From an uncultured Alphaproteobacteria bacterium (GTDB taxonomy: Bacteria > Pseudomonadota > Alphaproteobacteria > HIMB59 > GCA-002718135): DNA of 64,000 nucleotides. Below, one piece after another: positions 34,030 to 55,924 of the stretch (position 1 is its first letter; every line of letters starts with the position of its first letter). The position numbers were made by a program, and so were the translations under genes. Below the pieces are notes generated by a model. That model was not told the origin of the DNA. It did not search any database and was given only the letters and a program-made list of their open reading frames with translations. The stretch covers positions 37,749 through 101,748 of the forward strand of contig CACJEE010000002.1 in assembly GCA_902592345.1 (NCBI GenBank). Reading direction: 5' to 3'.

Positions 34030-34068
34030 ATTATTTCTTTTCAGATATAGGTTTGTTAAATTAAAAAG

Positions 34069-34083
34069 TGTTATAATATAACA
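34069..34083. promoter_or_regulatory. Zur box in the znuA | znuC divergent promoter
   Basis: Perfect 7-1-7 palindrome TGTTATA-A-TATAACA. It matches the core of the proteobacterial Zur consensus (ATGTTATAnTATAACAT) as recalled. Confidence 0.75.
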
Positions 34084-34103
34084 TATCAAATTGTAAACAG
34101 AAA

Positions 34104-35647: not shown

Positions 35648-35670
35648 AAACAATTTGATATCTAAATAGT

Positions 35671-38673: not shown

Positions 38674-38679
38674 TAACTA

Positions 38680-40272: not shown

Positions 40273-41976
40273 TTATTTAGTATCAAGAATATTGTATCGC
40301 CACGCTTGTGTTTTACGCAATACTTTTTTTGTAATAATTGTATGGGTAAGCCTCACAGCAACAGAAACATAAACTATTAACATCGCCATTGCAGCAGCTT
40401 TAGCGACTTCTCCCTGTTCATCTAAATGAATAGCAGACACAGATGCAAGAGTAGTATCATAGGAATAAAGGAAGATTACCCCGGACACGGTAGTCATCGC
40501 ATTAACAAATAAATAAATAGAAACATCAAAAATAGGTGGCAGACAAACAGGTAGGGTTACACGCCAAAACATTTTATAAATCGGAATTTTTAAAGACAAA
40601 GAAACAGATTCAAATTCTTTATCCATTTGCTTTAAAGCAGTAATCGCTGTCAAATGAGAGACTGTATAGAAATGAACAATTGTGTTTACAACCAAGATAA
40701 TCATTGTTGCATAAATAAAATTTAGAGGATTATCTTTTGCGTTAAAGAAAAATATATAAGCTAATCCTAATACCAACCCTGGTACAGCCATTGGCATAAG
40801 TGCAAAAAATTGAACTGTATTTCTATATCCTTCATTAATTCTTAATTTTTCAATTAAGTAGGAGCCAACAAAAATAATAATGGTGCCAAAAATTGCTGTA
40901 TAAAATGACAATTCAACTGAATTATAAAAAGAATCCCAGCCAAGTCCTGCTACTTGGAAGTCATAATTTTTTAACGTAAAATTTAAGTTATAAGGCCAAT
41001 ATTTAACTATTGCTCCAAATTGTGCCATCCCTATCATTAATATGATGATTAATGCTAAGGCTGAACAGAATCCAAGCATGATCATATCAACCTTGAAGTG
41101 TTTCTTCGGTTTGAAAACAACTGATCTAGCCGTGAGTAAAGAGATTTGTTTTTTTCTTGAATAACGATCAATAAAAAAAGCTATCATTGCAGGAACTAAT
41201 AGTACCATAGAGATGACTGCGCCCATTTGAAAATTTTGCATCCCAACAACTTCTTTATAAATATCAGTTGCTAAAACATTATAGTTTCCTCCTATAACTT
41301 TAGGAACACCAAAGTCGGTAAACACTTGAGTAAAAATGACAAAGGCCGTACTAATGATTCCGTATCTTGCCCCCGGAATAGTGATGGTAAAAAATGCTCT
41401 AAGCTTAGATGTTTTTAAAACATCTGCCGCTTCATACAAACGTGAATCAGATAATGATAAAGAAGTTGTCAAAATAATAAGTGCATGAGGAAAAGTCCAA
41501 TAGACAGAAGCCATAATGATACCAATAGGTCCATAAATTGATTTTCCTAACAACACTTCTTTTAAAACACCTTGGTTACCAAACCAATACACAAGAGCTA
41601 TCGCAGCAAGAATGGATGGACTTAATAAAGGAATTAAAGCTACTAATTTAAAAAAACCTTTAAAAGGCATGCAGGTTCTTGTTAGGGCATAAGAAAATAA
41701 AAATGCCAAGACAACAACAATTACAGTGGAACAGATAGCGACAAATAAACTATTATAAAGTGATTGAAATAATGCGGGTTCTTGAAGATACAAGTTATAG
41801 TTTGTAAGACCAATGAATTCACCATCTTTATTTTGTAAACTTTTTGAAATTAAAGCCCCTAGAGGTAAAACTAAAAATAATAAAAAAAGAATAATATAGG
41901 AAATGAGCATAAATAGCCCAACTCGATCACTTGAATCTTTACCTCTACGTATATCTGCAAATTTGAATAAACTCAT
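40273..41976 (-). CDS. Fused two-domain ABC permease, Fe(III)/2-aminoethylphosphonate type
   Basis: 567 aa, about 12 TM, two BPD-type halves. Operon with the ATPase. Confidence 0.8.
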   Translation of the reverse strand: MSLFKFADIRRGKDSSDRVGLFMLISYIILFLLFLVLPLGALISKSLQNKDGEFIGLTNYNLYLQEPALFQSLYNSLFVAICSTVIVVVLAFLFSYALTRTCMPFKGFFKLVALIPLLSPSILAAIALVYWFGNQGVLKEVLLGKSIYGPIGIIMASVYWTFPHALIILTTSLSLSDSRLYEAADVLKTSKLRAFFTITIPGARYGIISTAFVIFTQVFTDFGVPKVIGGNYNVLATDIYKEVVGMQNFQMGAVISMVLLVPAMIAFFIDRYSRKKQISLLTARSVVFKPKKHFKVDMIMLGFCSALALIIILMIGMAQFGAIVKYWPYNLNFTLKNYDFQVAGLGWDSFYNSVELSFYTAIFGTIIIFVGSYLIEKLRINEGYRNTVQFFALMPMAVPGLVLGLAYIFFFNAKDNPLNFIYATMIILVVNTIVHFYTVSHLTAITALKQMDKEFESVSLSLKIPIYKMFWRVTLPVCLPPIFDVSIYLFVNAMTTVSGVIFLYSYDTTLASVSAIHLDEQGEVAKAAAMAMLIVYVSVAVRLTHTIITKKVLRKTQAWRYNILDTK

Positions 41977-41984
41977 ATACCTAA

Positions 41985-43058
41985 TTATGTTGAATAAATA
42001 CGAGCATCTTCTCTAGAAAAATATAGATTCATTTCTTTATTCAAATCTAATTCAATTTTTCTTGCAGTAGCACTTGGGACATCAACAATAATTAATTCAT
42101 CTGTAATATTAATTGCTTCAAAATACACTCGTTGAAAAGATCCTAAAAACTCAACTTCTTTAATTGTTCCTGGAATCATATTGTCATCCTGATTGCTTTG
42201 CTTAAACTGAATGTCCTCAGGTCTAATTGCTAATTGAACAGAATCATTTGCTTTAAAATTTCCTATCTCACAATTTATCTCTATTTGATTACATTTTACT
42301 TTGTTTGAACTATTAATAATCGCAGGGATAAAATTCATACTGCCAATAAAAGAAGCTATAAAAGGAGAATTTGCTTTTGTATAAATTTCACTTGGTGTTC
42401 CTGATTGAATTATTTCCCCATCTTTCATTACGAAGATTCTATCCGCCATTGTTTGTGCTTCTTCTTGATCATGGGTAACCATAATAGTTGTTACACCAAG
42501 CTTTCTTTGCAAATCTCGTATTTGTTTTCTTAAAAAAACCCTAACCTTTGCATCCAAGGCAGATAAAGGTTCATCTAATAATAACAATCCTGGAGAGGTT
42601 GCTAAAGCTCTAGCTAAGGCGACACGTTGTTGCTCACCACCAGATAGCTGACTTGGATATTTTAATGCATGTTCAGTTAAATTAACTAAACTTAATAATT
42701 CATCTACTCTTTTTTTTATATCTGCTTTTTTCCATTTATTATTTATCAAACCATAAGATATATTTGAAAAGACAGACAGATTTGGAAACAAGGCATAAGA
42801 CTGAAAGACGATTCCAAAATCTCTATTTGATGGAGGCTCATTTGATATATTAATATTTTTTTGAATAACAGATCCTGTACTTTGAGTTTCTAATCCGGCT
42901 ATACATCTTAGTAAAGTTGTTTTGCCACAACCTGAAGGACCAAGAAAGCAAACAAATTCACCTTCTTGAATATTTATATCAATATTTTTTATTGCTTCAA
43001 AATTTCCGAATGATTTTGATAAATCTTTAACTTCAAGATATGTGTTATTATTCTGCAT
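41985..43058 (-). CDS. ABC transporter ATP-binding protein (PotA/FbpC/PhnT-like)
   Basis: GPSGCGKTT, LSGGEQQR, LLLDEP, C-terminal TOBE-like domain. Confidence 0.9.
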   Translation of the reverse strand: MQNNNTYLEVKDLSKSFGNFEAIKNIDINIQEGEFVCFLGPSGCGKTTLLRCIAGLETQSTGSVIQKNINISNEPPSNRDFGIVFQSYALFPNLSVFSNISYGLINNKWKKADIKKRVDELLSLVNLTEHALKYPSQLSGGEQQRVALARALATSPGLLLLDEPLSALDAKVRVFLRKQIRDLQRKLGVTTIMVTHDQEEAQTMADRIFVMKDGEIIQSGTPSEIYTKANSPFIASFIGSMNFIPAIINSSNKVKCNQIEINCEIGNFKANDSVQLAIRPEDIQFKQSNQDDNMIPGTIKEVEFLGSFQRVYFEAINITDELIIVDVPSATARKIELDLNKEMNLYFSREDARIYST

Positions 43059-43139
43059 AAAATCAAATAAAGTTTAAGTAAATTTATCATAGTTATAACT
43101 TGTTATACGCAAAATTATATTGAAATTTACTAATAACTG

Positions 43140-43167
43140 TTAACAAATTTTTAATATATGCTTAACA
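43140..43167 (+). promoter_or_regulatory. Candidate Pho box: three hexamers at 11-bp phasing, followed by TTGACA
   Basis: TTAACA-N5-TTAATA-N5-TTAACA, then TTGACA at 43171-43176, in the divergent spacer of the AEP-type transporter. Confidence 0.35.
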
Positions 43168-43220
43168 TGATTGACATATTTATAATTAATAAATGTAAAA
43201 TTTTAACGGGAGGTAATTAT

Positions 43221-44264
43221 ATGTTCTTAATTAAAAAAACATTTAAAACGTTAAGTACTGTTTTAATTTTTTTATCTTTATCAACATTTAGTCAGTTATC
43301 AAATGCTGGTGAGCTATTGGTTTACTCAAGTACTGATGCAGATAATTTAAAACATTACATGGATGAATTTCAAAAACAACATCCTGATATTAAAGTAAAT
43401 GTTGTGCGTGAATCAACAGGTACAATGGCTGCTAAAATGATGGCAGAAAAAGATAATCCTCAAGCAGACTTTTTATTTGAAATGGCAGCTACTGTTGCTC
43501 TCAATATGGAAGCAGAAGGTATGTTTGTAGAATATACGCCAAAGGGAATGGATGCGATTGATCAACGATATGTTGATAACACTGATCCTGTTACCTGGGT
43601 TGGAAACTATGGTTGGGCTGGTTGCATTTGTTGGAATAGAATAGAAGCAGAAAAACATGGTCTACCAAAACCTACAAGTTGGGCTGAGTTAACAAATCCA
43701 ATTTATAAAGGTCACATTTCTATGCCTAATCCTGCATCATCTGGTACAGGCTTTTTGGATGCCTCTAGTTGGATTCAAATATGGGGTGAAGATAAAGCAT
43801 GGGAATACATGGATGCTCTTCATGAAAATATAGGTGTATATACTCACTCTGGTTCTAAGCCTTGTAAACAAGCTGGTTCAGGTGAATTTGCCATTGGTAT
43901 TTCTTGGCCAGGTAGAGCGATTAAAGTTATCAAAGCTGGTGCACCAATTGATATGATCATACCTGATGAAGGAATAGGTTGGGAAATGCAAGTGGTAGCA
44001 ATAATGGAAGGCACAGATAATCTGGAAGATGCTAAAACATTAATGGATTGGACTTTAGGTGATGGTATGAAATTGTTTGGCGAAAGACAATCAATTATTG
44101 CTGACCCATCAAAAGTAACGAAAGATCCAGAACTGCCAGATTTTTATGATGAAGTACAAGCTAAGTTAATTAATAATGACTTTGTTTGGGCTGCTGCAAA
44201 TAAAGATCGTATCGTTGCTGAATGGAAAAAAAGATACGACGGAAAAACTGAGCCGAAAAGTTAA
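43221..44264 (+). CDS. Periplasmic substrate-binding protein, 2-aminoethylphosphonate/Fe(III) family
   Basis: Start moved to ATG 43221, preceded by GGGAGG, which gives signal peptide MFLIKKTFKTLSTVLIFLSLSTFSQLSNA. Also LVYSSTDAD and NPASSGTGF motifs. Confidence 0.8.
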   Translation: MFLIKKTFKTLSTVLIFLSLSTFSQLSNAGELLVYSSTDADNLKHYMDEFQKQHPDIKVNVVRESTGTMAAKMMAEKDNPQADFLFEMAATVALNMEAEGMFVEYTPKGMDAIDQRYVDNTDPVTWVGNYGWAGCICWNRIEAEKHGLPKPTSWAELTNPIYKGHISMPNPASSGTGFLDASSWIQIWGEDKAWEYMDALHENIGVYTHSGSKPCKQAGSGEFAIGISWPGRAIKVIKAGAPIDMIIPDEGIGWEMQVVAIMEGTDNLEDAKTLMDWTLGDGMKLFGERQSIIADPSKVTKDPELPDFYDEVQAKLINNDFVWAAANKDRIVAEWKKRYDGKTEPKS

Positions 44265-44287
44265 TTTTCTATTTAAATTATAATTAT

Positions 44288-44314
44288 GGGGATGTTTACA
44301 TCCCCATTTTTTTT
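44288..44314 (+). terminator. Rho-independent terminator after the SBP gene
   Basis: GGGGATG-TTTA-CATCCCC followed by A+T8. Confidence 0.8.
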
Positions 44315-44317
44315 ACA

Positions 44318-45160
44318 ATGAGTGAAACTGGAATTTTTTTACTAATCCTTTTTGCAGCATTACTTCATGCTAGTTGGAATATAATAATTAAATCAATTAC
44401 GGACTCTCAAGTAGCAATGTCCTGGAAAATGCTAATTCAAAGCATAGTATTCTTTCCCATTTTATTTTTTGTGCCTATTCCTGAAGGTATAACCTGGTTT
44501 TATTTAATTTTATCGCTTCTATTACATAGTACTTATTTTTTAATTTTAGGAAGCATGTATAATAAAGGAGATATAACTATAATTTATCCTGTCTTTAGAG
44601 GTTTTGCGCCTGTTTTTGTTACAATCTTATCAGTTATTTTTTTACAAGATTATATAAGCATAAAAGGTTTCATTGGAATAAGCATTGTTGTTTTTGGATT
44701 ACTTTTATTAACAAGGGAAAATTATAAAAATAAATTAAATATCAAACTTCTAATTATTTCTTTATTTGTATCCATTATAATTGCCCTCTATACTTTTACA
44801 GATGGAGCAGGAGTAAGAAGTTCTGCTAATGCATTTAGTTTTATTGTATGGAATTTTTTTTTAGGTGGCTGGCTTACTATTAGTTACGTTTATTTAACAA
44901 ACAAAAGTGGTTTATTTAAATTAAAATTAAACCAATTTGTACTAATAACAATTGCTTCTGTTATGTCTTTTACTGCTTATGGTATAATTATATGGAGTAT
45001 GAATCATCAACCAATTGCTTACGTATCTTCTATTAGAGAGTCTAGTATAATTATGGCGTCATTAATTAGTTTTATATTCCTGGGTGAAAAAATTAGGAAA
45101 ATTAGACTAATCTCAGCAGTAATATTTTTCGTTGGTGTTTATTTTATATTTAATTCTTAA
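44318..45160 (+). CDS. EamA/DMT-family transporter (paralog 1)
   Basis: 280 aa, 10 TM. Collinear with the partial ORF at 63164 (PIAYVSSIRESSII). Confidence 0.8.
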   Translation: MSETGIFLLILFAALLHASWNIIIKSITDSQVAMSWKMLIQSIVFFPILFFVPIPEGITWFYLILSLLLHSTYFLILGSMYNKGDITIIYPVFRGFAPVFVTILSVIFLQDYISIKGFIGISIVVFGLLLLTRENYKNKLNIKLLIISLFVSIIIALYTFTDGAGVRSSANAFSFIVWNFFLGGWLTISYVYLTNKSGLFKLKLNQFVLITIASVMSFTAYGIIIWSMNHQPIAYVSSIRESSIIMASLISFIFLGEKIRKIRLISAVIFFVGVYFIFNS

Positions 45161-45169
45161 ATTATTTTA

Positions 45170-45727
45170 CTAAGAATTTGCTTGGAACGAATTTTCTACA
45201 TACTTTCGAAAATGCTCAACTGAAGGTGTTTTTTTATTTAATATTTTTGCCTGATCATCAAGGCGTCTCATTTCCACCGCTTCTTTCATTTGTGGTTTAT
45301 TAATAAATTCTTCCGCTTCTTGTTTAGAAAAAATACCACCTTGCACTTTTAAAGATATTTTTGATGCTCCTGATAATTCATCATAATATCCGTCTTCAAC
45401 TGCTGCAAGATATCGCTTTGATGCAACGTGTGCTCTAATCGGGAGTGTTACCTCTTCCCCAAAATATTTTGATAAGTAATCCGCTCCTAAATCTTCATGA
45501 ACACCATCTTTTCCTTGGTGAATGGGATCATTATCTTCATATAAAAGATGACCAATATCATGAAGCAAAGCTGCTGTTATAAAAGCATCTGATTTACCAT
45601 GTTGCTCTGCTAATTCCGCGCATTGAAGGGCGTGCTCTAATTGTGTTACAGCCTCATTGCCGTATTGAATATCGGAACCTTTTTTTTCTAATAATTCAAG
45701 TAAGTAGTTAACAATGTTATCTGACAT
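45170..45727 (-). CDS. phnZ: HD-domain diiron oxygenase, PhnZ-like
   Basis: 185 aa. YGNEAVTQLEHALQCA...LLHDIGH...HVASKRYL closely parallels the PhnZ sequence as recalled (YIGEAINQLEHSLQCA...LLHDLGH...HVAAKRYL). Confidence 0.72.
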   Translation of the reverse strand: MSDNIVNYLLELLEKKGSDIQYGNEAVTQLEHALQCAELAEQHGKSDAFITAALLHDIGHLLYEDNDPIHQGKDGVHEDLGADYLSKYFGEEVTLPIRAHVASKRYLAAVEDGYYDELSGASKISLKVQGGIFSKQEAEEFINKPQMKEAVEMRRLDDQAKILNKKTPSVEHFRKYVENSFQANS

Positions 45728-45886
45728 AAAATATAATCTAAATTATAAAAATATTCATGTCTATAAAAAACCTTTTAAACCTTCAGCTTTCTAAAATATA
45801 TTTTTAAGATATATTGGACATTAATTTTTATATAATAGTTTTTTGTTGACCATTAGCAATTATACTTATTAAACATAAATATTAAA

Positions 45887-46651
45887 ATGAAATTAAAAAA
45901 TAAAAATGTAATTATTACAGGTGGTGCTTCGGGGATAGGAAAAGCAACTGCAGAATTATTTTGTAATGAAGGCGCAAAAGTTGCGATCATGGATATTAAT
46001 AAAGCTGAGGGAGAAAAGACAGTTAGTCAAATTAATTCAAATAATGAAAAGGCATTTTTCTTTCACACTGATTTAAGAAAATCTAGTGAAGTCAAAAAAT
46101 CAATTAATCAAATTTTAGATTTATTTGGAACACTCAATATTTTGTTTAACCATGCAGGAACAATAATAGTTAAGCCACTTCATGAATCTTCTGAAGAAGA
46201 TTATGATTATTTGATGGATATTAACGTTAGATCAGCCTTTCTTGTTTGCAATGAAGTAATTCCCTCAATGTTAAAAAATAAAGGGGGAAATATAATTATT
46301 ACTTCATCAATTGGAGGAGAAAAAGGCTTTGCTTTAGAATCCTTATACTGCATGACGAAGGGGGCTGTTTTACAATTAGCTAGATCAATTGCTGTTGAAT
46401 ATAGAGATCAGGGAATTAGATGTAATGCAATCTGTCCAGGATTTGTTAAAACTAATCACGGATTGAGAGAAATAAAAGAATTAGATGAGCAAGGACAAAA
46501 TTGGGATGAAAAAGATTTGCATTCTGTTCAGGGAAGAATATGTAAACCAGAAGAGATTGCTTCTGCGGTTTTATACTTAGCGTCTGATGATTCTAGTTTT
46601 GTTAATGGAACTGCTTTGTATGTTGATAATGGTTGGTATGCTAAAGGATAA
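45887..46651 (+). CDS. Classical short-chain dehydrogenase/reductase
   Basis: TGGASGIGKA, NHAG, S...YCMTK. 3 nt upstream of the ABC ATPase. Confidence 0.9.
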   Translation: MKLKNKNVIITGGASGIGKATAELFCNEGAKVAIMDINKAEGEKTVSQINSNNEKAFFFHTDLRKSSEVKKSINQILDLFGTLNILFNHAGTIIVKPLHESSEEDYDYLMDINVRSAFLVCNEVIPSMLKNKGGNIIITSSIGGEKGFALESLYCMTKGAVLQLARSIAVEYRDQGIRCNAICPGFVKTNHGLREIKELDEQGQNWDEKDLHSVQGRICKPEEIASAVLYLASDDSSFVNGTALYVDNGWYAKG

Positions 46652-46654
46652 CAA

Positions 46655-47665
46655 ATGAGTCTCTCACCTAAACTTATTTGTAAAAATGTTTGGAAATTAT
46701 ATGGAGATAATCCAAAAGAATTTTTAAAAAGTCACAATAATAATCCTGATAAAGAAATAATAAAAAAAAGTGGTTACATTCAAGCAATTCGAAATGCCTC
46801 ATTAGAAGTTTATGAAAATGAAATTCTAGTAATAATGGGTCTAAGTGGTTCAGGAAAATCTACTTTGGTTAGATGTATGTCAAGATTAGTTGATCCTACA
46901 ATAGGAGAAATTTTTTTTGAAAATATTGATATGGGAAAGTTATCAAAAAATGAATTAATAGAAATTAGAAGACATAAAATGGGTATGGTGTTCCAACACT
47001 TTGCACTTTTTCCTCACCGAACTGTTATAGAAAATATTGCTTTTCCTTTAGAAGTTCAAGGGATCAAAAGAAAAGAAAGAGAAAAGTCTGCTTTAGAAAT
47101 AATTGATCTAGTAGGATTACAAGGAAGAGAGAATTATTTTCCAAAAGAACTTTCGGGAGGTCAACAACAAAGAGTTGGTATAGGTCGTTCATTAGCTGTT
47201 AAACCAGAGTTATGGTTTTTAGATGAACCATTTTCTGCCTTAGACCCACTAATAAGGAAAGAGATGCAAAATGAGTTTTTAAAAATTCAAAACTCACTTA
47301 AAAAAACTATTATTTTTATAACTCATGATTTTGATGAAGCGATTAAATTAGCAGATAGAATCATTATTATGAATGAAGGAAGAATAGTGCAAATTGGAAG
47401 CCCTGAAGATTTAATTATGAAGCCTGCAGATGATTATGTAAAAGAATTTACTGAAGACCTTCCAAGAGAGAGGTTGTTATCTGTAAAAAGTATAATGGAC
47501 ACTAAAAAAGAGCCTAATAATTCTTCAACAGTTTATGAGGATGAAAAAATATTTTCAATTCTTGAAAAAGTTCTCTCTGAGGGTTCTGTTTCAGTTCTTG
47601 ATAAATCAAATAATATTATTGGCTCACTTAATAAAGAAACAGTCTCAAAATTTATTAATAATTAA
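46655..47665 (+). CDS. proV: Glycine betaine/quaternary-amine type ABC ATPase
   Basis: GLSGSGKST, LSGGQQQR, WFLDEP. Short CBS-like C-terminus. Confidence 0.85.
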   Translation: MSLSPKLICKNVWKLYGDNPKEFLKSHNNNPDKEIIKKSGYIQAIRNASLEVYENEILVIMGLSGSGKSTLVRCMSRLVDPTIGEIFFENIDMGKLSKNELIEIRRHKMGMVFQHFALFPHRTVIENIAFPLEVQGIKRKEREKSALEIIDLVGLQGRENYFPKELSGGQQQRVGIGRSLAVKPELWFLDEPFSALDPLIRKEMQNEFLKIQNSLKKTIIFITHDFDEAIKLADRIIIMNEGRIVQIGSPEDLIMKPADDYVKEFTEDLPRERLLSVKSIMDTKKEPNNSSTVYEDEKIFSILEKVLSEGSVSVLDKSNNIIGSLNKETVSKFINN

Positions 47666-47727
47666 ATATTATATAAATAATCTTTATACTTTTATAAAAA
47701 AATCTAAGAGCTATTGTGCGTTTTTAG

Positions 47728-47753
47728 TAGTTTTATTTAATAGTTTTATTTAA
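47728..47753. repeat. Perfect tandem duplication of 13 bp (tagttttatttaa x2)
   Basis: Read directly in the 119-bp proV-proX spacer. Confidence 0.9.
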
Positions 47754-47784
47754 TATTTTGTAAAATTTATTACTGGGAGGTACA

Positions 47785-48732
47785 ATGAAAATTCTTAAAA
47801 ATAAATTTAATATATTATTAAGTTTTATTTTTATTCTATTTGCACAAAATATATATGCAGTAGAATCAAAAGATCCAATTAAGCTAACTTTGCATGATTG
47901 GACAGGTCAATTGATTACAACTAATATTATGGCTGAAGTTCTTAAGGAAGCAGGCTACAATATAGAACTTGTTCCGGCAGATTATATTGCACAATTTGCA
48001 GGTCTTCAGACAGGCGATCTTCATGTAGCAATGGAAATGTGGGAAACAACTGGTCGTGATGCAATCGATGAGTATACTGCTGACGGAAGAGTAGTCAATG
48101 TAGGTAGTACAGGAATGGATGCAATAGAAGAATGGTGGTATCCTTCTTACATGAAAGAAAAATGTCCTGGACTTCCAAATTGGGAAGCTCTTAATGATTG
48201 TGCAGAAGCTTTTTCTACACCTGAAACATCTCCAAAAGGAAGATATTTGGGTGGACCAGTAACTTGGGGTGGTTATGATGATGAACGTGTTGAAGCGCTT
48301 GAGTTAGATTGGGAAGTAATTCATGCAGGAACCGATGGTGCTCTTTTTGGTGAATTAGAGTCTGCTTATCAGAGAAAAGCTCCAATAATGTTATGGGTTT
48401 ATGCTCCTCATTGGGCTCCATCAAAGTATGATGGAGAATTTGTAGAATTTCCACCATACACGACTGAGTGTTATACAGATCCGTCTTGGGGTATAAATAA
48501 AAATGCTGCTTATGATTGTGGTAAACCGAGAGGTCCTATTTGGAAAGTTGCTTCAAGCATGCTTAAAGATAAATGGCCAGGTGCTTACGATGCAGTAGAA
48601 GCATTTACACTTGATAGTAATGAAATGGGAAATCTGGTTGCAGCTGTTGATCTTGATGGCAATACTGTAGAAGCTGTTGTCGCAGAATGGATGGCTAACA
48701 ATAAAGATAGATGGGGTACTTGGATAAAATAA
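47785..48732 (+). CDS. proX: Glycine betaine-type (OpuAC/ProX family) substrate-binding protein
   Basis: Signal peptide. LTLHDWTGQLITTNIMAEVLKEAGY and EMWETTG. Trp-rich. Confidence 0.85.
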   Translation: MKILKNKFNILLSFIFILFAQNIYAVESKDPIKLTLHDWTGQLITTNIMAEVLKEAGYNIELVPADYIAQFAGLQTGDLHVAMEMWETTGRDAIDEYTADGRVVNVGSTGMDAIEEWWYPSYMKEKCPGLPNWEALNDCAEAFSTPETSPKGRYLGGPVTWGGYDDERVEALELDWEVIHAGTDGALFGELESAYQRKAPIMLWVYAPHWAPSKYDGEFVEFPPYTTECYTDPSWGINKNAAYDCGKPRGPIWKVASSMLKDKWPGAYDAVEAFTLDSNEMGNLVAAVDLDGNTVEAVVAEWMANNKDRWGTWIK

Positions 48733-48753
48733 CCCTTTAATCTTAATTTTTTA

Positions 48754-48781
48754 GGGGGATTTATATCCCCCTTCTTATTTT
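48754..48781 (+). terminator. Intra-operon hairpin/terminator between proX and proW
   Basis: GGGGGAT-TTAT-ATCCCCC followed by TTCTTATTTT. Confidence 0.75.
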
Positions 48782-48786
48782 ACAAT

Positions 48787-50775
48787 ATGCAGAAAAAAAA
48801 ATTATCAAACAAAATTATTTTTATTTCTCTAACTGTCTTAACTTTTTTTTTGTATTGGTATGGCAAAGAAATAGCAAACTACTTAGATAGTAAATGGCTA
48901 GTAAAGTATCCAAAGCATTATTCATTTCCTTTTGCAATTTATACTTCAACATTTGTTAAATGGTTAATTAATGATGCTAATTTTTGGCTATTTACTTTTA
49001 ATGATCTTACTCGTTTCTTTGCTTGGATTATAGAACAGCCTTACAATATAGTTTTAGCTATATTTTCTAAAGGAATATTAAAAGGACAAGGTCAAGATGC
49101 GATCCAAATCATGGAACCATTAAGTTGGATTTCAGTTGTTGGTATTTTTTTTACCCTTGCGCTTTATACAAGAGATAAGTTTTTAATAATACTTGTTGTT
49201 CTATCAATAGTTTATTTGGCTGTATTTGATCAATGGCAAAGTTCAATGATTACATTATCTTCAATAATTATTGCTGTACCAATTGGAGTTGTTCTAGGAA
49301 TATTATTAGGAATATTATCCTACAAGTCGAAAATTTTAGAAAAAATTATAACTCCAATATTAGACCTAATGCAAACAGTCCCGGTCTTTGCTTACTTAGT
49401 TCCCATACTTGTAATGTTTGGTTTTGGGCCAGTTTCTGCATTAATTGCAACCATAATATATGCAATGCCACCAATGGTGAGAACTACCCTTTTAGCACTT
49501 AACAGTATTGATCCACAATTAAAAGAGAGTGGGCTCATGTCTGGTTGCACAGAAAGACAATTAATGTGGAAGGTTCTGATTCCAGTATCTAAACCAACTT
49601 TACTTATAGGCGTCAATCAAGTGATTATGCTATCACTTAATATGGTTATCATAGCTTCTATGATAGGCGCAGGGGGATTAGGTTACGACGTATTGGCCTC
49701 TCTTAGAAGATTAGATATTGGAGGAGGTATAGAGTCAGGTATAGCTATCGTAGTTATAGCAATAGCTTTAGATCGCTTGAGTCAATCATTTGCAAACTTA
49801 CCCACTCTCTCAAAAAAAACACAGAAAACTTTTTTTACTAAATATAAAAAAATAATTTTCTTAATTTTTTATATAATTGGAATTTATATATTAGGTAATT
49901 TTTTTACTTTTTTTAAATTATTCCCTGAAGAGTTAATGATTAATACTTCATTATTTTGGGAAGAACTAGTTAAATATATAAATATAAATTATTTTGATAA
50001 TCTAGAGAGTTTCAAAATAACTCTATTAACTTTTTTCATGCTTCCAATAAAAAAATTCTTTTTAGGAATTCCCTGGCCATGGTTTATTTTTATTATTACA
50101 ATTATTGGATGGTATTTTGGAAAGACTAAATTAGCATTACTTTGTTTAATGATGTCAATTTTTATAGTGACAACTGGTCTTTGGGAAAAAGCGATGATTA
50201 CACTTTATTTATGTGGTTCAAGTGTAATAATAGCATCTATTATAGGAATTCCTCTAGGGATATGGGCAGGCTTAAGCAGCAGGGCAAATAAAATATTAAC
50301 TGCTTTTATTGATACTCTTCAAACTTTACCAAGTTTTGTTTACTTGATACCTGTTGTAATGCTATTTCGTGTAGGTGACTTTACAGCAATGATTGCTGTT
50401 ATACTTTATGCACTTGCTCCTGCTGTTAGATATACAGCTCATGGAGTAAAAAATATTAATAATCAAATTGTGGAGGCAGCGTTAATAAGTGGATGTTCTC
50501 AAAGACAGTTATTATTTAAAATTAGATTACCTTTAGCCTTGCCAGAAATTTTACTAGGTATTAACCAAACTATAATGCTTGCTTTATCTATGTTAGTTAT
50601 TACTGCATTAGTTGGAACTAGAGATCTTGGTCAAGAAGTTTACATAGGTTTAACTAAAGCAGATATAGGAAGAGGTTTGGTTGCCGGACTATGTGTAGCT
50701 TTTATATCTATAATTGCAGATAGAATAATTAAAGCTGGAAGCAATAATCTTAAAAATAAATATGGAATCAAATAA
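48787..50775 (+). CDS. proW: Fused tandem-duplicated betaine-type ABC permease
   Basis: 662 aa. Two homologous halves, each with DxxQTxPxFVYLxP and an EAA-like loop (SGCTERQLMWKV / SGCSQRQLLFKI). Confidence 0.85.
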   Translation: MQKKKLSNKIIFISLTVLTFFLYWYGKEIANYLDSKWLVKYPKHYSFPFAIYTSTFVKWLINDANFWLFTFNDLTRFFAWIIEQPYNIVLAIFSKGILKGQGQDAIQIMEPLSWISVVGIFFTLALYTRDKFLIILVVLSIVYLAVFDQWQSSMITLSSIIIAVPIGVVLGILLGILSYKSKILEKIITPILDLMQTVPVFAYLVPILVMFGFGPVSALIATIIYAMPPMVRTTLLALNSIDPQLKESGLMSGCTERQLMWKVLIPVSKPTLLIGVNQVIMLSLNMVIIASMIGAGGLGYDVLASLRRLDIGGGIESGIAIVVIAIALDRLSQSFANLPTLSKKTQKTFFTKYKKIIFLIFYIIGIYILGNFFTFFKLFPEELMINTSLFWEELVKYININYFDNLESFKITLLTFFMLPIKKFFLGIPWPWFIFIITIIGWYFGKTKLALLCLMMSIFIVTTGLWEKAMITLYLCGSSVIIASIIGIPLGIWAGLSSRANKILTAFIDTLQTLPSFVYLIPVVMLFRVGDFTAMIAVILYALAPAVRYTAHGVKNINNQIVEAALISGCSQRQLLFKIRLPLALPEILLGINQTIMLALSMLVITALVGTRDLGQEVYIGLTKADIGRGLVAGLCVAFISIIADRIIKAGSNNLKNKYGIK

Positions 50776-50796
50776 ATATTACTTTATTTGATCAAT

Positions 50797-51894
50797 ATGG
50801 ATAAAAAGTTATTAACTCCCGGACCTCTTACTACTTCACTGAGCACTAAAGAGGCAATGCTTCATGATTGGGGATCACGTGATCAAAAATTCATCGATCT
50901 AAATCAATCTATTCGTGACTCATTAATTAAGTTAATTGATGGGGAAGGCAATTATCAATGTGTGCCTATGCAAGGAAGTGGAACATTTGCTGTTGAATCG
51001 ATGATTAGTTCACTAACACCAAAAGATGCTAACATTTTAATTTTAATTAATGGTGCTTACGGTCAACGAATGAAAAAAATGTGTGCGTACTTAAATAGAA
51101 ATATGATTGACTATGAAGTAGCTGAACATGAGCCTCATAATATGAGTAAATTAGAAGAGATTATTGATGCTAATAAGCAGCTTACTCACGTTTTTGCTGT
51201 TTATTGTGAAACTACATCAGGAATCCTAAACCCTATCAATGATATTGCTGATTTAGTTAAGAAAAAAAACTTATCTTTATTTATAGATGCGATGAGTGCC
51301 TTTGGTGCTCTTCCTCTTAGTAGTAAAGATATTACTTTTGATGCTGTTGCAGCTTCATCTAATAAATGTTTAGAGGGCGTTCCTGGTGTTGGATTTATTT
51401 TAATGAAAAATAATGTGATTGAAAAAGCAAAAGGGAACTGTCATTCATTAAGTTTGGATTTGTATGATCAATGGACAGCAATGGAGCAAAATAAACAATG
51501 GCGCTTTACACCACCTACACATGTATTAGCCGCATTCAATCAAGCAATTACTGAACATCAAAATGAAGGTGGAATTGAAGGGCGACACAAAAGATATAAA
51601 AATAATTGTAAAATCATATGTGATGGAATGAAAGAGATTGGCTTTGAACAACTCTTACCTGATGAGTTGCAAGCACCAATTATCATAACTTTTAAACAAC
51701 CAAGTGATCCAAACTTTAATTTTCAAAAATTTTACAATGCTCTTAGTGATAAAGATTTTCTAATTTATCCTGGAAAATTAACTGTCGCTGATACTTTTCG
51801 TATTGGATGTATTGGTAATTTAAATGAACAAGATATGAGAGATACACTTACAGCTGTTAAAGAGGTAATCAACGATTTAAAGATAAGTTTATGA
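50797..51894 (+). CDS. phnW: 2-aminoethylphosphonate-pyruvate transaminase
   Basis: Class V aminotransferase with PhnW-like N-terminus KLLTPGPLTTSLSTKEAMLHDWGSRD. ATG 50797 preferred over TTG 50788. Confidence 0.87.
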   Translation: MDKKLLTPGPLTTSLSTKEAMLHDWGSRDQKFIDLNQSIRDSLIKLIDGEGNYQCVPMQGSGTFAVESMISSLTPKDANILILINGAYGQRMKKMCAYLNRNMIDYEVAEHEPHNMSKLEEIIDANKQLTHVFAVYCETTSGILNPINDIADLVKKKNLSLFIDAMSAFGALPLSSKDITFDAVAASSNKCLEGVPGVGFILMKNNVIEKAKGNCHSLSLDLYDQWTAMEQNKQWRFTPPTHVLAAFNQAITEHQNEGGIEGRHKRYKNNCKIICDGMKEIGFEQLLPDELQAPIIITFKQPSDPNFNFQKFYNALSDKDFLIYPGKLTVADTFRIGCIGNLNEQDMRDTLTAVKEVINDLKISL

Positions 51895-52529
51895 GTAGTT
51901 CAGATGCGGTTGAAATTCCTTTAATTAAAGCTACCAATGAAGCACTTAAAGGGTATGGGTATTTAATCGACTCATATGAAAATAATGATATTGAAATTGT
52001 CACTTGGCCCAAACAGGGTTGGCGTGAAATTGATGAAGGTACAGGCAATGAAGGTGGGAGTACAGAGGGATCTTTCGATGCTTGGTGGGAAGGAAGTACA
52101 CTGTTCGGACAAAATAATGCTGTTCAACATAACAGCGACTATGAAGTAGACGGAAAATACATACTTGGTCATTCCTTACCCCCTGATAGTGAAGCTACAA
52201 CAAAATACATACCGCCAAAAAATATTTATATTTGGCATGTTAATTATCATCCTGATGGTGGACAGCTTTTTTATCCATCAACAAAAAGTCCTTTTATTTC
52301 ACCTTTAGCCTTACCAGGAGATGATGTGCAAGTTGGTGATTTTAAAGCTTTTTATTTTGATGGTTCGCAAGGGTTATACATTCATCCTAACATATGGCAT
52401 GAAGGAGTTTTCCCAATCGAAGAAAAATGCTCTTTTCAGGGTCGGCAAGGCAAAGTGCATGCAAGAGTGAGTATTGATTTACAAAAAGAATTTAAGAAAT
52501 ATATTTTTTTTAAAACTTCTTTAAAATAA
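51891..52529 (+). CDS. Cupin-fold protein, ureidoglycolate lyase (AllA)-like
   Basis: HPDGGQLFYP and NIWHEG motifs resemble the AllA family. ATGA overlap with the phnW stop. Confidence 0.55.
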   Translation: MSSSDAVEIPLIKATNEALKGYGYLIDSYENNDIEIVTWPKQGWREIDEGTGNEGGSTEGSFDAWWEGSTLFGQNNAVQHNSDYEVDGKYILGHSLPPDSEATTKYIPPKNIYIWHVNYHPDGGQLFYPSTKSPFISPLALPGDDVQVGDFKAFYFDGSQGLYIHPNIWHEGVFPIEEKCSFQGRQGKVHARVSIDLQKEFKKYIFFKTSLK

Positions 52530-52533
52530 ATAT

Positions 52534-53640
52534 TTATTTTTTTTCAATAACAAAAATTTCATTATTAAAATAAAGACCTTTGTTTTTAGTAACTATTTTT
52601 TGTACAACATCTTCGTAATTTTTAGATTTTTCCACTTTCATCACTTTATCATCATCTATTTGATTAACATAAATAGATGCATTCCAAGCTGAAAATATTA
52701 AAGAGGTTGCTATGCTCCCACTTAGTTCATTGGGTAAAGCTCTAAGCTTACATTTAATAATCTTTTTATCTTTAAAATTTAATTTAGCTAATAAATTTTT
52801 ATCTAAATTTTTTTTCAAATAGTGAATTATAGAATTGCTTAATGAAGGAAATGGATTTTCTTTTGGCCAGATTTTTTTTATAATTTTATTAGCTGGATCA
52901 TTCCCTGAGGCGTGAATAGTTAATAATTTCCCTTTAGGTTTTAGAGCATCAATCATAGGGCGTATGACATATTTTACTTTTTTTTCTGCTGAAATTCTTG
53001 ATCTATAAGGTTGTGAAGCAATTATTAGATCAAATTTATTTGCACCATTATTTATTCTGGGAATTAATTCATGCACATTAAATTCTTGATCTTCTCTATA
53101 TATAATCATTACTGATGGCTCTTTATAAGTTGGATTGCCATTTTTTTTATTAATTTCAATATTCCATTTTTTTTCTAAAAAAGAATTTTGACTTCTTAAT
53201 TGTTCTGCAAAATCAAGTGAGGTATCTCCTTTAAGCTTAACAACATGCCAATTAATCTTCTTCTGTTTTGTGGGATTATTAGATTTTAGATTTGCTGCTT
53301 CTGCATAATGCAGGTTTGATATAACAAATACTGTATTTTTGTGTTCAACAAATCTATCTGGTAATTTTTCTAAACCAAGTCTTACATCCTCTATACTAAT
53401 TTCCTTTGTAGAAACAAAAAGAGGTATATTTGGTTTTGCTTCATGACATTGTCTCATTACATTCATTAATAATGATCCGTCACCCATGCCTGCATCAAAT
53501 ATTTTAATGCCAGGTTTTGTTGGTTTAATTTTATTTATGTGAGGACGAATGAAATCAGCAATCTGATTTTTTTCATTAGTTGTTGTAACAAACAGCAAAT
53601 ATTTTTGCCTGTTATCATAAAATCTAAAATTTTTTTTCAT
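52534..53640 (-). CDS. Class I SAM-dependent methyltransferase-like protein, unknown substrate
   Basis: Motif I IFDAGMGDGS and an acidic post-I region. Last gene of the 55838->52534 operon. Confidence 0.6.
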   Translation of the reverse strand: MKKNFRFYDNRQKYLLFVTTTNEKNQIADFIRPHINKIKPTKPGIKIFDAGMGDGSLLMNVMRQCHEAKPNIPLFVSTKEISIEDVRLGLEKLPDRFVEHKNTVFVISNLHYAEAANLKSNNPTKQKKINWHVVKLKGDTSLDFAEQLRSQNSFLEKKWNIEINKKNGNPTYKEPSVMIIYREDQEFNVHELIPRINNGANKFDLIIASQPYRSRISAEKKVKYVIRPMIDALKPKGKLLTIHASGNDPANKIIKKIWPKENPFPSLSNSIIHYLKKNLDKNLLAKLNFKDKKIIKCKLRALPNELSGSIATSLIFSAWNASIYVNQIDDDKVMKVEKSKNYEDVVQKIVTKNKGLYFNNEIFVIEKK

Positions 53641-53641
53641 T

Positions 53642-54754
53642 CTAAAACAATCCCATTAGTTTAGCAGACGAGATAAAAGCATCTTTATTCCCAATAAAAT
53701 TTTTACCTCTTTCACCTAAGAAAGCATCATCTACAATATTATTCCACTCTTGAACAGGAACTTTTATTTCATTTAAGTTTAATGGAACTTCCAAAGAGCG
53801 CATAAATTCACTTAATTTTAAAGATGAATTTTCTAAATTATCATTAAAGATTAATTGTAATCTTTCTTCAGCAATTTTATCTATTCCAATCATGCTTCTA
53901 GTAACAATCGGAAGGGTAAATGAACAAGCAATACCATGTTGAATACCATAATTTAGAGTAATTGGATAAGACAAGTTATGAGCAATAGCAGTTTTAGTAT
54001 TTGAAAATGCTAATCCTGCATGCACACATGCACGCGCAATATTAGCACGTAATTCAATATTTTTTAAATCTTTTGCTAGTAATGGTAAATTTTCTAAAAC
54101 CAATTTTGATGCTTGAATTGCATGTGATGCTGAAACTGGATTAGCGTTAACATTCCATATACTCTCCATCGAGTGTGACAATGCATCTAAACCAGTTGAA
54201 ATTGTAAGACCAAGAGGTTTGTCAATCATAATTGACGGATCAATAATTGCTTTTTCTGCGTAAAGTGTTTTATGTGCTAAAGAAAGTTTGTTATTTTTTT
54301 CTTTATCCCAGATTGTAGCCCAACAAGTAAGTTCACTAGACGTGCCAGATGTCGTAGGAACAGCAATAATTTTAATAGGATTTTCAACTTTCGGATTTTT
54401 TTTATTTCTTACAAAATCAGTTAAGTATTCCTGTTTATCTCTAAAAGCAGCAATGGCTTTTGCTGTATCCGTTACAGAACCTCCACCAATAGCTAAAATA
54501 TAATCAACAGTTTTATCAATTGAGGCAAATTTATTTTGAAGTTCTAATATATCTTTATAGTCTGGGTTAGGTTGAACATCTGTCATAATAGACAGTGGTG
54601 GATTAGAGGAAGAACTCAATTCATCACTATATTTTTTAAAAATTTCTTCTGGGTGAGTAATAATTATATAGGATTTATTTTTAAGTGCTGAATGTACTTC
54701 TTTAAATTTATTTTCACCAAATATAATCTCTACCGGATTATAGTAACTCCACAT
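53642..54754 (-). CDS. Iron-containing alcohol dehydrogenase, phosphonate-associated type (putative phosphonoacetaldehyde reductase / 2-HEP dehydrogenase)
   Basis: MWSYYNPVEIIFG start, GGGSVTD, Fe-ADH His cluster (LSHSMES, AHNLSYP). Confidence 0.78.
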   Translation of the reverse strand: MWSYYNPVEIIFGENKFKEVHSALKNKSYIIITHPEEIFKKYSDELSSSSNPPLSIMTDVQPNPDYKDILELQNKFASIDKTVDYILAIGGGSVTDTAKAIAAFRDKQEYLTDFVRNKKNPKVENPIKIIAVPTTSGTSSELTCWATIWDKEKNNKLSLAHKTLYAEKAIIDPSIMIDKPLGLTISTGLDALSHSMESIWNVNANPVSASHAIQASKLVLENLPLLAKDLKNIELRANIARACVHAGLAFSNTKTAIAHNLSYPITLNYGIQHGIACSFTLPIVTRSMIGIDKIAEERLQLIFNDNLENSSLKLSEFMRSLEVPLNLNEIKVPVQEWNNIVDDAFLGERGKNFIGNKDAFISSAKLMGLF

Positions 54755-54758
54755 TTTG

Positions 54759-55838
54759 TTAAATTGATTTTGCAGCTTTTGACAAAATTGTCATTTTTTC
54801 AATTGCTTGCTCTCTTGTAAAGAATCCTAAACCACAATCTGGGGCAGCAATTAAACGATGCTCATCAATATGTTCTAAAGAGTCTTTCATTCGAGTTCTC
54901 ACTTCCTCTACAGACTCCATTCTGCTTTTAGCAATATCAATAAATCCAAAAATAACTTTTGTTTTTTTAAATTTTTCTAAAAGATTTAAATCATTATGTC
55001 TGTGAGAGTCTTCTAGAGATACTTCATCAATAGTAGAGTCATCAACTAAAGTAGCAATTCTATCATATGCATCTAAGTCTGCTTTTTTATATCCTTCAGA
55101 GTCAAGACAGTTTGGATAACCACAACAGATGTGACAAACCCTTTGCACATCTTTAGGGATTCCGTGCATCATTCTCTCTAAGTTCTCCATGCCATATGTA
55201 TTAGCTTCTTCTGGTTTTCTTGCAAAAACCGGTTCATCAATTTGAATATATTTACAACCAGCATCAACGAGTGCTTTTATTTCTTCGTTTAGAGCTAATG
55301 CTAAATCAAAACCCAGTTTTTTAAGATCATCATAATAGTTGTTTGCAATTGAGTCGGTTATTGTCATAGGACCAGGAAGAGTAATCTTTACCGGATTTTT
55401 AGTAAATTGTTGAGCGCTTTTCCAGTCTAATGGCATGCGTATCTCTTTACTTGAAACTGGACCAATTATTGTTGGAACACTTGCTTCAAAAGCTCCTTGT
55501 CTTACTGACTTATGAGTTACTTCTTCAAAGCTTATATTATTTAGAAAACGACATTGGTGAAAAACATAACTTTCTCTTCTTACTTCCCCATCTGTTGGTA
55601 TATCAATACCGGCATTAACTTGATCTATTATAACTTCTTTAATTGCATCTAAAAATAAGTTTTCTACATCATCACCAGCTTTCTCTATTGCTTTTTCGTA
55701 GGCACCAGGTGACCAATTTGCCAATAATCCTTTAGCAGCTTTTTTTTCTTCTTCAGATTTAGTACCTAAAAACCAATCATTAATAGGAGTATTTTTTGGT
55801 TTTGGATAAGCGCCGATGGTAGTTGTAATTAGAGGCAT
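54759..55838 (-). CDS. Core MetE-like (cobalamin-independent methionine synthase C-terminal domain) zinc methyltransferase
   Basis: 359 aa single (beta/alpha)8 domain. Zinc-ligand pattern CHICC ... LED ... PDCGL is intact. Confidence 0.78.
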   Translation of the reverse strand: MPLITTTIGAYPKPKNTPINDWFLGTKSEEEKKAAKGLLANWSPGAYEKAIEKAGDDVENLFLDAIKEVIIDQVNAGIDIPTDGEVRRESYVFHQCRFLNNISFEEVTHKSVRQGAFEASVPTIIGPVSSKEIRMPLDWKSAQQFTKNPVKITLPGPMTITDSIANNYYDDLKKLGFDLALALNEEIKALVDAGCKYIQIDEPVFARKPEEANTYGMENLERMMHGIPKDVQRVCHICCGYPNCLDSEGYKKADLDAYDRIATLVDDSTIDEVSLEDSHRHNDLNLLEKFKKTKVIFGFIDIAKSRMESVEEVRTRMKDSLEHIDEHRLIAAPDCGLGFFTREQAIEKMTILSKAAKSI

Positions 55839-55862
55839 AATATATTCTCCGTTGATTCTTAC

Positions 55863-55893
55863 AAATAAAACAGCGGCTTTTATAAAGCCGCTG
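55863..55893 (-). terminator. Strong hairpin + U-tract between the SBP gene and the MetE-like gene
   Basis: Minus strand: CAGCGGCTTT-ATA-AAAGCCGCTG followed by TTTTATTT. Confidence 0.8.
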
Positions 55894-55924
55894 CAATAAA
55901 ATGTTAATAATTAATCAATCTTTT

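Follow-up and report, generated by a model that had tools for sequence, protein, structure and literature searches.

An optional OpuAC-type importer block upstream of phnW in the phosphorus island of an uncultured alphaproteobacterium

Why does an importer of the betaine type stand directly upstream of phnW, the gene for 2-aminoethylphosphonate (AEP):pyruvate transaminase? The question is raised by a 64,000-nucleotide stretch of an uncultured alphaproteobacterial genome (contig CACJEE010000002.1, positions 37,749 to 101,748; assembly GCA_902592345.1), here called the window, in which genes for a short-chain dehydrogenase/reductase (SDR), a ProV-type ATP-binding cassette (ABC) ATPase, an OpuAC-type substrate-binding protein (SBP), a fused double ProW-type permease, PhnW and a cupin follow one another on the forward strand. 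The SDR and importer genes form a discrete, optional 5-kb module. On balance we lean slightly towards the view that the importer serves a small N-methylated compound, is unspecialised for phosphonates, and adjoins phnW through the arrangement of a mosaic island and not as part of a dedicated pathway. The system is an uncharacterised member of a well-known transporter class rather than a new kind of system.

A discrete, optional importer block

Genes were assigned by Pfam and NCBIfam profile searches and PDB comparisons of the window open reading frames (ORFs). The SDR (45887-46651) is a classical oxidoreductase of 254 amino acids (adh_short_C2, 1.8e-63) whose best PDB matches are generic SDRs. 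The ATPase (46655-47665; 336 aa) scores 337.2 bits on TIGR01186 proV against a cut-off of 326.6, and it covers profile positions 1-296 of 363, most of the C-terminal (CBS) region being missing. The periplasmic SBP (47785-48732), which has a signal peptide, matches PF04069 OpuAC over residues 30-305 with 156.9 bits (cut-off 21.2; 9.5e-46), and the permease (48787-50775; 662 aa) contains two BPD_transp_1 stretches and reaches 413.7 bits on the ProW/ChoW-type model TIGR03416 (cut-off 363). PhnW (50797-51894) scores 520.7 bits on NF010006 and 478.7 on TIGR02326, against cut-offs of 296 and 400.8. Its mechanically called ORF begins at a TTG at 50788; homology with ten related loci begins exactly at the ATG at 50797, which we therefore take to be the true start. 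The cupin (51891-52529; 212 aa) is ureidoglycolate-lyase-like (Ureidogly_lyase, 5.7e-11) and overlaps phnW by 4 nt. The six genes are separated by 3, 119, 54, 21 and -4 nt. A first-pass annotation of the sequence had given the same order, spacing and identities; the ORF coordinates with the revised phnW start bear out the first two, and the profile scores the third. By these matches the importer is assigned to the OpuAC/ProVWX-type (betaine-choline-TMAO class; TMAO, trimethylamine N-oxide) of binding-protein-dependent ABC importers.

The accessory block occupies 45756-50796 on the forward strand (5,041 bp) and takes in, besides the genes for the SDR, ATPase, SBP and permease, an upstream region of its own and a tail of 21 nt. 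A metagenomic strain with the same phosphorus island (locus L101), found in a cupin-anchored scan of metagenome contigs, matches the window by blastn at 98.9% nucleotide identity over 43820-45755 and at 97.6% over 50797-56029, but is missing the block; in place of these 5,041 bp it has a 69-nt spacer between its divergent phnZ and phnW genes. The left breakpoint lies 28 nt upstream of the start codon of phnZ and the right one is the phnW ATG itself; the two ends of the block were searched for direct repeats and for signatures of mobile elements, and neither was found. Presence/absence polymorphism at 98% flank identity shows that SAR11 nutrient islands are assembled from small modules.

The same scan gave 24 loci in which the upstream neighbour of phnW could be read. 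This neighbour is a divergent phnZ in half of them (12 loci), a gene for a TIGR03329-type (Pbf-like) aminophosphonate oxidoreductase in six, a permease gene in three, a choline-kinase-like (ChoK-like) gene in two, and in one a gene resembling that of dimethylglycine dehydrogenase (DMGDH), itself preceded by SDR-ATPase-SBP-permease (L136). The importer is present upstream of phnW-cupin in four of the 24 (∼1 in 6) and absent from 20, whereas phnW and the cupin gene are a stable pair that occurs in nearly all related loci. In block-free strains the phnZ-like gene is the direct divergent neighbour of phnW.

Transcription of phnW together with the importer, as originally proposed, is supported in part. 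The layout is tight, and a terminator scan between the permease gene and phnW found nothing; however, a GC-rich hairpin followed by a T-rich tract (48753-48772, forward strand) lies right after the SBP gene and is the sole convincing terminator-like element in the region, and no metatranscriptome contigs were seen across the permease-phnW junction (50775-50797). In one metatranscriptome run, contigs cover the SDR gene, phnW and the junction between phnW and the cupin gene. In four marine metatranscriptomes the contig depth of the SBP is 10-100x that of the ATPase, permease or phnW and falls after ∼48700; these data are assembled contigs, 90% or more alike, and relatives contribute to the depth. 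The hairpin is probably an attenuator or an mRNA-stabilising element giving excess SBP transcript. Promoter-like sites precede the SDR gene and also fall within the 119 nt between the ATPase and SBP genes, at a frequency no higher than in shuffled sequence. An Rfam scan of the window returned no family at gathering score, so neither the 119-nt nor the 160-nt spacer contains a known riboswitch. Read-through from the block into phnW is plausible, and the structure itself would impose it: block-free strains have the phnW promoter in the 69-nt spacer, and in the window the block has taken the place of that spacer.

Family and binding pocket of the SBP

The nearest solved structure to the SBP, by a wide margin, is 4XZ6, the TmoX protein of Ruegeria pomeroyi (SPO1548), at E 6.7e-66 and 36.8% identity. 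The TmoX pocket is formed by W55, W102, F106, E131, W177, F220 and W222 (PMC8918994), and alignment on 4XZ6 gives W39, W86, G90 (followed by R91), E115, W161, W204 and Y206 as the equivalents. Four of the seven positions are identical and three are changed, F106 to G90, F220 to W204 and W222 to Y206. All of the pocket residues are invariant in 11 family members with 71-94% identity, drawn from SAR11-type, other alphaproteobacterial and gammaproteobacterial sources. An aromatic cage for a methylated onium head group thus appears to be kept at W39, W86, W161, W204 and Y206, and the exchange of one cage Phe for a Gly that is followed by Arg leads us to expect a larger ligand, its tail being polar or anionic.

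The first-pass annotation had cautioned that the importer might simply be the ProVWX betaine transporter on which SAR11 cells rely, in which case its adjacency to phnW could be coincidental. Three SAR11 binding proteins were considered as counterparts and rejected. The C-terminal 118 residues of ProX (SAR11_0797) and TmoX (SAR11_1302) were decoded from synthetic genes in the supplement of 10.1101/2023.02.16.528805; in local alignment with the window SBP, those of SAR11_0797 score 63 over 55 residues versus 140 for SAR11_1302, which nonetheless aligns poorly and has an F-x-W motif. SAR11_1336 is set apart by its description as PotD (PMC11485210), the window SBP being OpuAC only by Pfam with no PotD-type NCBIfam match. 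It is this PotD-annotated SAR11_1336 that is the experimentally assigned SAR11 binder of glycine betaine and dimethylsulfoniopropionate (DMSP) (PMC11485210). Betaine, choline-O-sulfate and phosphocholine were not bound by SAR11_0797 in isothermal titration calorimetry (ITC) (PMC11485210; 10.1101/2023.02.16.528805 supplement), the latter two being its matches by differential scanning fluorimetry, compounds that would have suited the first-pass proposal well had the two proteins been the same. The caveat therefore falls, since the SBP is neither SAR11_0797 nor SAR11_1302 and the betaine/DMSP binder is a different protein. On the strength of these comparisons we place the SBP firmly in a third, uncharacterised and highly conserved family related to TmoX.

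Members of this family are 68-99% identical across the sampled Alpha- and Gammaproteobacteria loci and contigs labelled Acidimicrobiia and Flavobacteriaceae, and HIMB59 carries one (AFS49529.1). Binding proteins of the OpuAC class are among the most expressed in ocean bacteria and are used as markers of the dissolved compounds that are consumed. The family is abundant, and surveys probably score it as a TMAO or betaine binder at the hidden Markov model thresholds that they apply.

Whether the importer is the only one of its kind has a divided answer. No second copy was found in the window or, for the five closest genomes (incomplete single-cell assemblies), among the best 80 GTDB loci; however, related genomes carry a second OpuAC-type transporter a few kb beyond the cupin gene and downstream of GlpC (L155, L157, L158), with SBP, permease and ATPase 46%, 48% and 67-69% identical, and these genomes carry at least two importers of the class.

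Neighbours of the importer family and the phosphorus island

Neighbourhoods of the family were drawn from the best 80 GTDB loci by tblastn with the window proteins and three L001 proteins. The dominant layout is SBP-(ATPase)-permease followed by choline-kinase/APH-like and DMGDH-like genes, as seen in Rhodobacterales, Hyphomicrobiales, Rhodospirillales, Arenicellales, Granulosicoccus and others. Pelagibacteraceae have a betaine-homocysteine methyltransferase (BHMT) gene on the reverse strand, then SBP, permease, ChoK-like and DMGDH-like genes, and their ATPase gene is not adjacent. The choline-kinase-like protein, at ∼150 bits, stays far under the cut-off of the GntI model (pre-guanitoxin N-oxide kinase), and the DMGDH-like enzyme has 810 aa with DAO, FAO_M and GCV_T domains. 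More than 90% of the family members in other taxa are paired with these two genes and have no phosphonate genes nearby, and a phosphonate gene within 10 kb is absent from ∼55 of 60 family loci outside the window's clade. Every importer context holds an N-methyl-removing enzyme (DMGDH-like, BHMT, SoxAB or Pbf-like) with the exception of the window, in whose 64 kb we found no DMGDH, Pbf or BHMT gene and only a MetE-like homologue.

The SDR accompanies the importer in loci more closely related to the window, as SDR-SBP-permease-ChoK in L009-L012 (84%), SDR-SBP-permease in L018 (89%) and SDR-ATPase-SBP-permease-ChoK-BHMT in L019 (90%). Since it is linked to the importer in L009, L018 and L019, it travels with the importer independently of phosphonate genes. 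We also considered a choline-to-betaine-to-glycine theme for all contexts, which fits only in part, through BHMT, the DMGDH-like enzyme and SoxAB. The iron alcohol dehydrogenase and aldehyde dehydrogenase of L009 score best as 4-hydroxybutyrate and succinic semialdehyde dehydrogenases, not as GbsB/GbsA.

Linkage to phnW, the conservation of which had been in question, holds within the clade that carries this SBP. Relatives of the window SBP at 94% identity or more are mostly located upstream of phnW-cupin, although the importer is missing from L101 and from most phnW-cupin loci; in one SAR11-type clade this placement directly before phnW is the best conserved that the SBP family has. Two abundant SBP variants, P0139 (197 collection blocks) and P0138 (204 collection blocks), belong to a cluster represented by P0001, a protein with 94% identity to the SBP of the window; both sit in the order ChoK(+)-SDR-ATPase-SBP-permease-phnW-cupin, with PhnU2 and a Pbf-like oxidoreductase upstream. 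Three downstream contexts occur in loci of this type: GlpCBA-like genes; a GlpA-like gene with PhnX (TIGR01422, 291 bits); and PhnY-PhnA. Window positions 45839-52513 are colinear with L098 at 78% nucleotide identity, and the encoded proteins are 85% (SDR), 89% (ATPase), 95% (SBP, P0139 copy), 87% (permease), 81% (PhnW) and 65% (cupin) identical. The L098-type island also exists without the block (L158), and the GTDB species of L015, L016 and L017 share the arrangement of the window. Two choline-kinase/APH-like genes lie between the TIGR03329 oxidoreductase gene and phnW whether or not the block is present (L098 1660-5042; L158 3354-6890; L159 4591-6890); their top NCBIfam match is again GntI, at ∼150 bits. 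L136 (1-8645) has the order SDR-ATPase-SBP-permease-DMGDH-phnW-cupin, with a DMGDH-like protein 72% identical to the Pelagibacteraceae one, and may represent a stage between the canonical operon and the layout of the window.

Two species, AG-447-O15 and AG-447-A02 (L013 and L014), are exceptions and have only the ATPase-SBP-permease core in common with the window (46642/46664-50786, 88% nucleotide identity). There (1-20945) the core stands between SoxA/SoxB/Ldh_2 genes and genes for a proline-racemase-like protein, two creatinase-like M24 proteins, M20, two PALP proteins and an ornithine cyclodeaminase (OCD), a set reminiscent of the breakdown of ectoine or of N-methyl amino acids. Their SBP matches that of the window at 98.7% identity, with four differences (I60V, S108T, E173G and T312N), three of which are shared with the SBPs linked to phnW in L015 and L016. 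No substitution among the window and L013-L016 marks a phosphonate-context version. The idea of an SBP specialised for phosphonates thus finds no support, its sequence showing no specialisation in the phosphonate context.

The GC content of the window is ∼30%, and the nearest genomes are Pelagibacterales single-cell genomes, on which grounds we assign the organism to the Pelagibacterales (SAR11-type). Left of the island are the core genes MurJ, TrpS, Nfu and MiaB and a ZnuA/ZnuC/ZnuB cluster with Zur (32860-36069), which directly adjoins it; PhoU_div, a Pho4-type phosphate transporter and the dual-specificity (PTP-like) phosphatase follow (38011-40252). The region is a metal-and-phosphorus acquisition neighbourhood. 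The left part of the island contains, in order, PhoU_div, Pho4, a dual-specificity phosphatase, PhnU2, PhnT2, PhnS2, an EamA protein and the PhnZ-like gene. To the right of the block are phnW, the cupin gene, a gene for a 368-aa protein, a PsrA-like iron alcohol dehydrogenase, a MetE-like protein, a UgpB-like SBP, PhnY, PhnA, UgpC, UgpA and a UgpE-like protein.

PhnU2 and PhnT2 (reverse strand) and PhnS2 (forward strand) constitute a dedicated AEP-type ABC importer at 40273-44264 (TIGR03262, 763 bits; TIGR03265, 488 bits; TIGR03261, 408 bits; all above cut-off). This importer and the divergent PhnZ-like gene had both been noted upstream, with the argument that a second importer would not be redundant; both are present, and the importer of the block is not a duplicate of the AEP importer. 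PhnY, phosphonoacetaldehyde dehydrogenase (TIGR03250, 792 bits versus 636), and PhnA, phosphonoacetate hydrolase (TIGR02335, 468 versus 408), are encoded on the reverse strand at 57319-59999, and as assigned they complete a PhnW-PhnY-PhnA route with phnW. The PhnZ-like gene (45170-45727, reverse strand), divergent from the block, encodes an HD-domain oxygenase of the PhnZ/TmpB family, with 207 bits on TIGR03276 versus a cut-off of 215. It is below every NCBIfam equivalog cut-off and about equidistant from TmpB (6NPA, 1.1e-33) and PhnZ (4MLM, 1.4e-32), and it carries the YxxE loop, to which its motif Y-G-N-E aligns. No PhyH-type or TauD-type (TmpA/PhnY*-like) hydroxylase was found at 24996-63140 among the listed ORFs of at least 100 aa, all of which were scanned apart from 26306-26776 and those nested in larger genes. 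The substrate of the oxygenase may be an already hydroxylated phosphonate that comes from outside or is made by an unrecognised enzyme.

The cupin has a strongly conserved His-rich motif (WHVNYHPDGGQLF ... GLYIHPNIWHEGVFP ... VHARVS), which suggests a metal site. Relatives 50-56% identical adjoin PhnS2T2U2, an HD oxygenase, or PhnW/PhnY in other lineages (L076 18427-19206; L164, L168, L173, L178), and some at 70-74% identity stand alone (L132, L135, L147). The cupin may be an undescribed enzyme of a phosphonate pathway. Directly downstream of it, the 368-aa protein (52534-53640, reverse strand) has no Pfam, NCBIfam or PDB match; its motif FDAGMGDGS resembles motif I of S-adenosylmethionine-dependent methyltransferases, and it is kept at 66-98% in the same place in many loci (L101-L113, L121, L122, L143, L148). 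The PsrA-like iron alcohol dehydrogenase (TIGR03405, 366 bits, below the 424 cut-off) and the short MetE-like protein (Meth_synt_2, 359 aa) are encoded at 53642-55838 on the reverse strand and are conserved in L016, L017, L101, L115 and L143. As a guess, the MetE-like homologue of homocysteine methyltransferases could parallel BHMT.

Possible roles of the importer and comparison with known systems

In the explanation that we favour, the block, with its own upstream region, an SDR and a complete importer, is an optional unit between the PhnZ-like gene and phnW in a phosphorus-scavenging island. The SBP appears to retain most of a TmoX-type cage for a methylated ammonium or sulfonium head group, plus the Glu that hydrogen-bonds the ligand oxygen in TmoX, and the importer would take up a small N-methylated compound that also bears a polar or anionic group, to be demethylated inside the cell. 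We infer this ligand class as the likeliest because the usual partners of the importer are a ChoK-like kinase and demethylating enzymes (DMGDH-like, BHMT, sarcosine oxidase, Pbf-like). Transcription of phnW and the cupin gene would depend on read-through from the block, and in block-free strains on their own promoter in the 69-nt spacer common to phnZ. The position upstream of phnW would derive from a single ancestral event that brought two modules together in a variable island, with loss, trimming and recombination thereafter.

Several observations weigh against this explanation. The order (ChoK)-SDR-ATPase-SBP-permease-phnW-cupin persists in the clade with at least 94% SBP identity while both flanks change, as functional units do. 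A ChoK-like gene, ∼60% identical to the Pelagibacteraceae/canonical one, lies directly upstream of phnW and beside a Pbf-like oxidoreductase where there is no importer (L158, L159). Canonical operons are followed in a Rhodospirillales metagenome-assembled genome (L076) by a LysR gene, a cupin homologue (50% identical) and PhnS2 (525 bits), and in Roseibium (L088) by PhnU2 and PhnT2; such PhnS2T2U2-type adjacency amounts to 2 of ∼55 loci outside the SAR11 clade versus a rough chance estimate of ∼0.3. Finally, we found no measured ligand in the literature for any member of the SBP's family.

Alternatively, the importer would take up an N-methylated aminophosphonate (trimethyl-, dimethyl- or monomethyl-AEP or a 1-hydroxy derivative) or a phosphocholine-like compound, much as the first-pass annotation had it. 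The block would then widen the range of the AEP island, and its product would pass to the PhnZ/TmpB-like oxygenase or, after demethylation, to PhnW-PhnY-PhnA. We consider this possible but doubtful. The colinearity of the window with L098 from SDR to cupin within different flanks argues for it, as do the three downstream contexts with PhnX and PhnY-PhnA among them. L098-type loci also have as neighbours PhnU2 and a TIGR03329 'putative aminophosphonate oxidoreductase' (602 bits), and enzymes of the TIGR03329/Pbf group oxidise N-methyl-AEP (PMC10590968). The ChoK-like gene upstream of phnW even without the importer, the canonical operons beside PhnS2T2U2 or cupin genes in two other orders, a pocket that keeps its cage and Glu while Phe gives way to Gly and then Arg, and an oxygenase as near to TmpB as to PhnZ all point the same way. 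No importer of 2-(trimethylammonio)ethylphosphonate has been described, and TmpA/TmpB is the only pathway for this compound that we found in the literature (PMC10590968, PMC10574752). Against this, a 98.7% identical SBP with no context-specific change occurs at a locus that has no phosphonate genes, a near-identical strain and 20 of the 24 phnW-cupin loci do without the block, and some 55 of 60 family loci outside the clade have no phosphonate gene within 10 kb. Moreover, because neither a TmpA/PhnY*-type hydroxylase among the scanned ORFs nor DMGDH, Pbf or BHMT in the window was found, there is no evident route in the window from methylated AEP to a PhnW or PhnZ substrate. A wider proposal would make the SBP family the importer so far lacking for N-methylated aminophosphonates (2-(trimethylammonio)ethylphosphonate and its hydroxylated or partly methylated forms, for example), and the ChoK-like, SDR, DMGDH/Pbf-like and cupin proteins an undescribed route into PhnW or PhnZ-type C-P cleavage; this we regard as rather unlikely. 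Methylated aminophosphonates are common natural products for which no importer is known, and identification of the ligand would add either a new way into the marine phosphonate cycle or a new methylated-amine substrate.

Two more conventional roles appear far less probable than uptake of either kind of compound. If the importer handled an osmolyte purely for osmoprotection, in the glycine betaine/proline role of ProVWX and with no catabolic link to its neighbours, the source annotation of a glycine betaine/proline binding protein would be apt, and the ATPase does pass the proV cut-off. In osmoregulated OpuA/ProV-type transporters, however, the C-terminal ATPase region holds CBS domains, and it is most of this region that the window ATPase lacks (proV profile 1-296 of 363). 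The genes around the family are also consistently catabolic (DMGDH-like, BHMT, sarcosine oxidase). Moreover, the SBP of the window is neither the PotD-type betaine/DMSP binder SAR11_1336 nor SAR11_0797, which gave no betaine binding by ITC; such a role is very unlikely. A TMAO-specific importer, the TmoXWV of this lineage, is if anything more improbable, even though TmoX is by far the nearest structure, the Glu for the TMAO oxygen and three of four cage Trp are conserved, and a fused double permease makes the overall layout of the transporters alike. The SBP has only 36.8% identity to TmoX, against ∼51% for SAR11 TmoX (PMC8918994); three of seven pocket residues differ (F106G, F220W, W222Y), and the C-terminal part of SAR11_1302 with its F-x-W motif aligns poorly. 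The neighbours of the family are ChoK-like and DMGDH-like genes, and general scans, which included no Tdm-specific (DUF1989) search, found no gene for the C-terminal aminomethyltransferase half of a Tdm-type TMAO demethylase. Related genomes also hold, close by, another OpuAC-type transporter, whose SBP is 46% identical (L155-L158).

Among characterised systems, TmoXWV (R. pomeroyi SPO1548/4XZ6; HTCC1062 SAR11_1302) is of the same class, combining an OpuAC-type SBP with a fused double permease and a ProV-type ATPase. W55, W102, W177 and E131 of TmoX are conserved in the window SBP as W39, W86, W161 and E115; the two proteins differ where F106 is Gly (then Arg), F220 Trp and W222 Tyr, and the importers differ in their neighbours, which are phnW-cupin in the window and ChoK-like and DMGDH-like genes in the family. 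ProVWX/OpuA systems (Escherichia coli ProX, Bacillus subtilis OpuAC) share the OpuAC domain, the proV-type ATPase, the ProW-type permease and the aromatic-cage principle, although B. subtilis OpuAC (2B4L) is only a remote sequence match to the window SBP (E 3e-11) and the C-terminal third of SAR11_0797 is unlike it.

The TmpA/TmpB pathway for 2-(trimethylammonio)ethylphosphonate in Leisingera caerulea resembles the locus through the HD oxygenase with its YxxE loop, divergent to the block, and its substrate is a quaternary ammonium compound that a betaine-type importer would suit. The window differs from it in that no TmpA-type or PhnY*-type 2-oxoglutarate hydroxylase is present among the scanned ORFs. 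The AEP hydrolytic clusters (PhnW-PhnX or PhnW-PhnY-PhnA with PbfA-D; AepXVW/PhnS2T2U2) compare more fully, the window having PhnS2T2U2, PhnW, PhnY and PhnA. No AEP cluster that we found described in the literature has an OpuAC-type importer, SDR, choline-kinase-like gene or cupin of the window type. Loci related to the window add a TIGR03329 (Pbf-like) oxidoreductase or PhnX to the AEP genes, and Pbf enzymes are established optional modules that widen the substrate scope of AEP clusters (PMC10590968).

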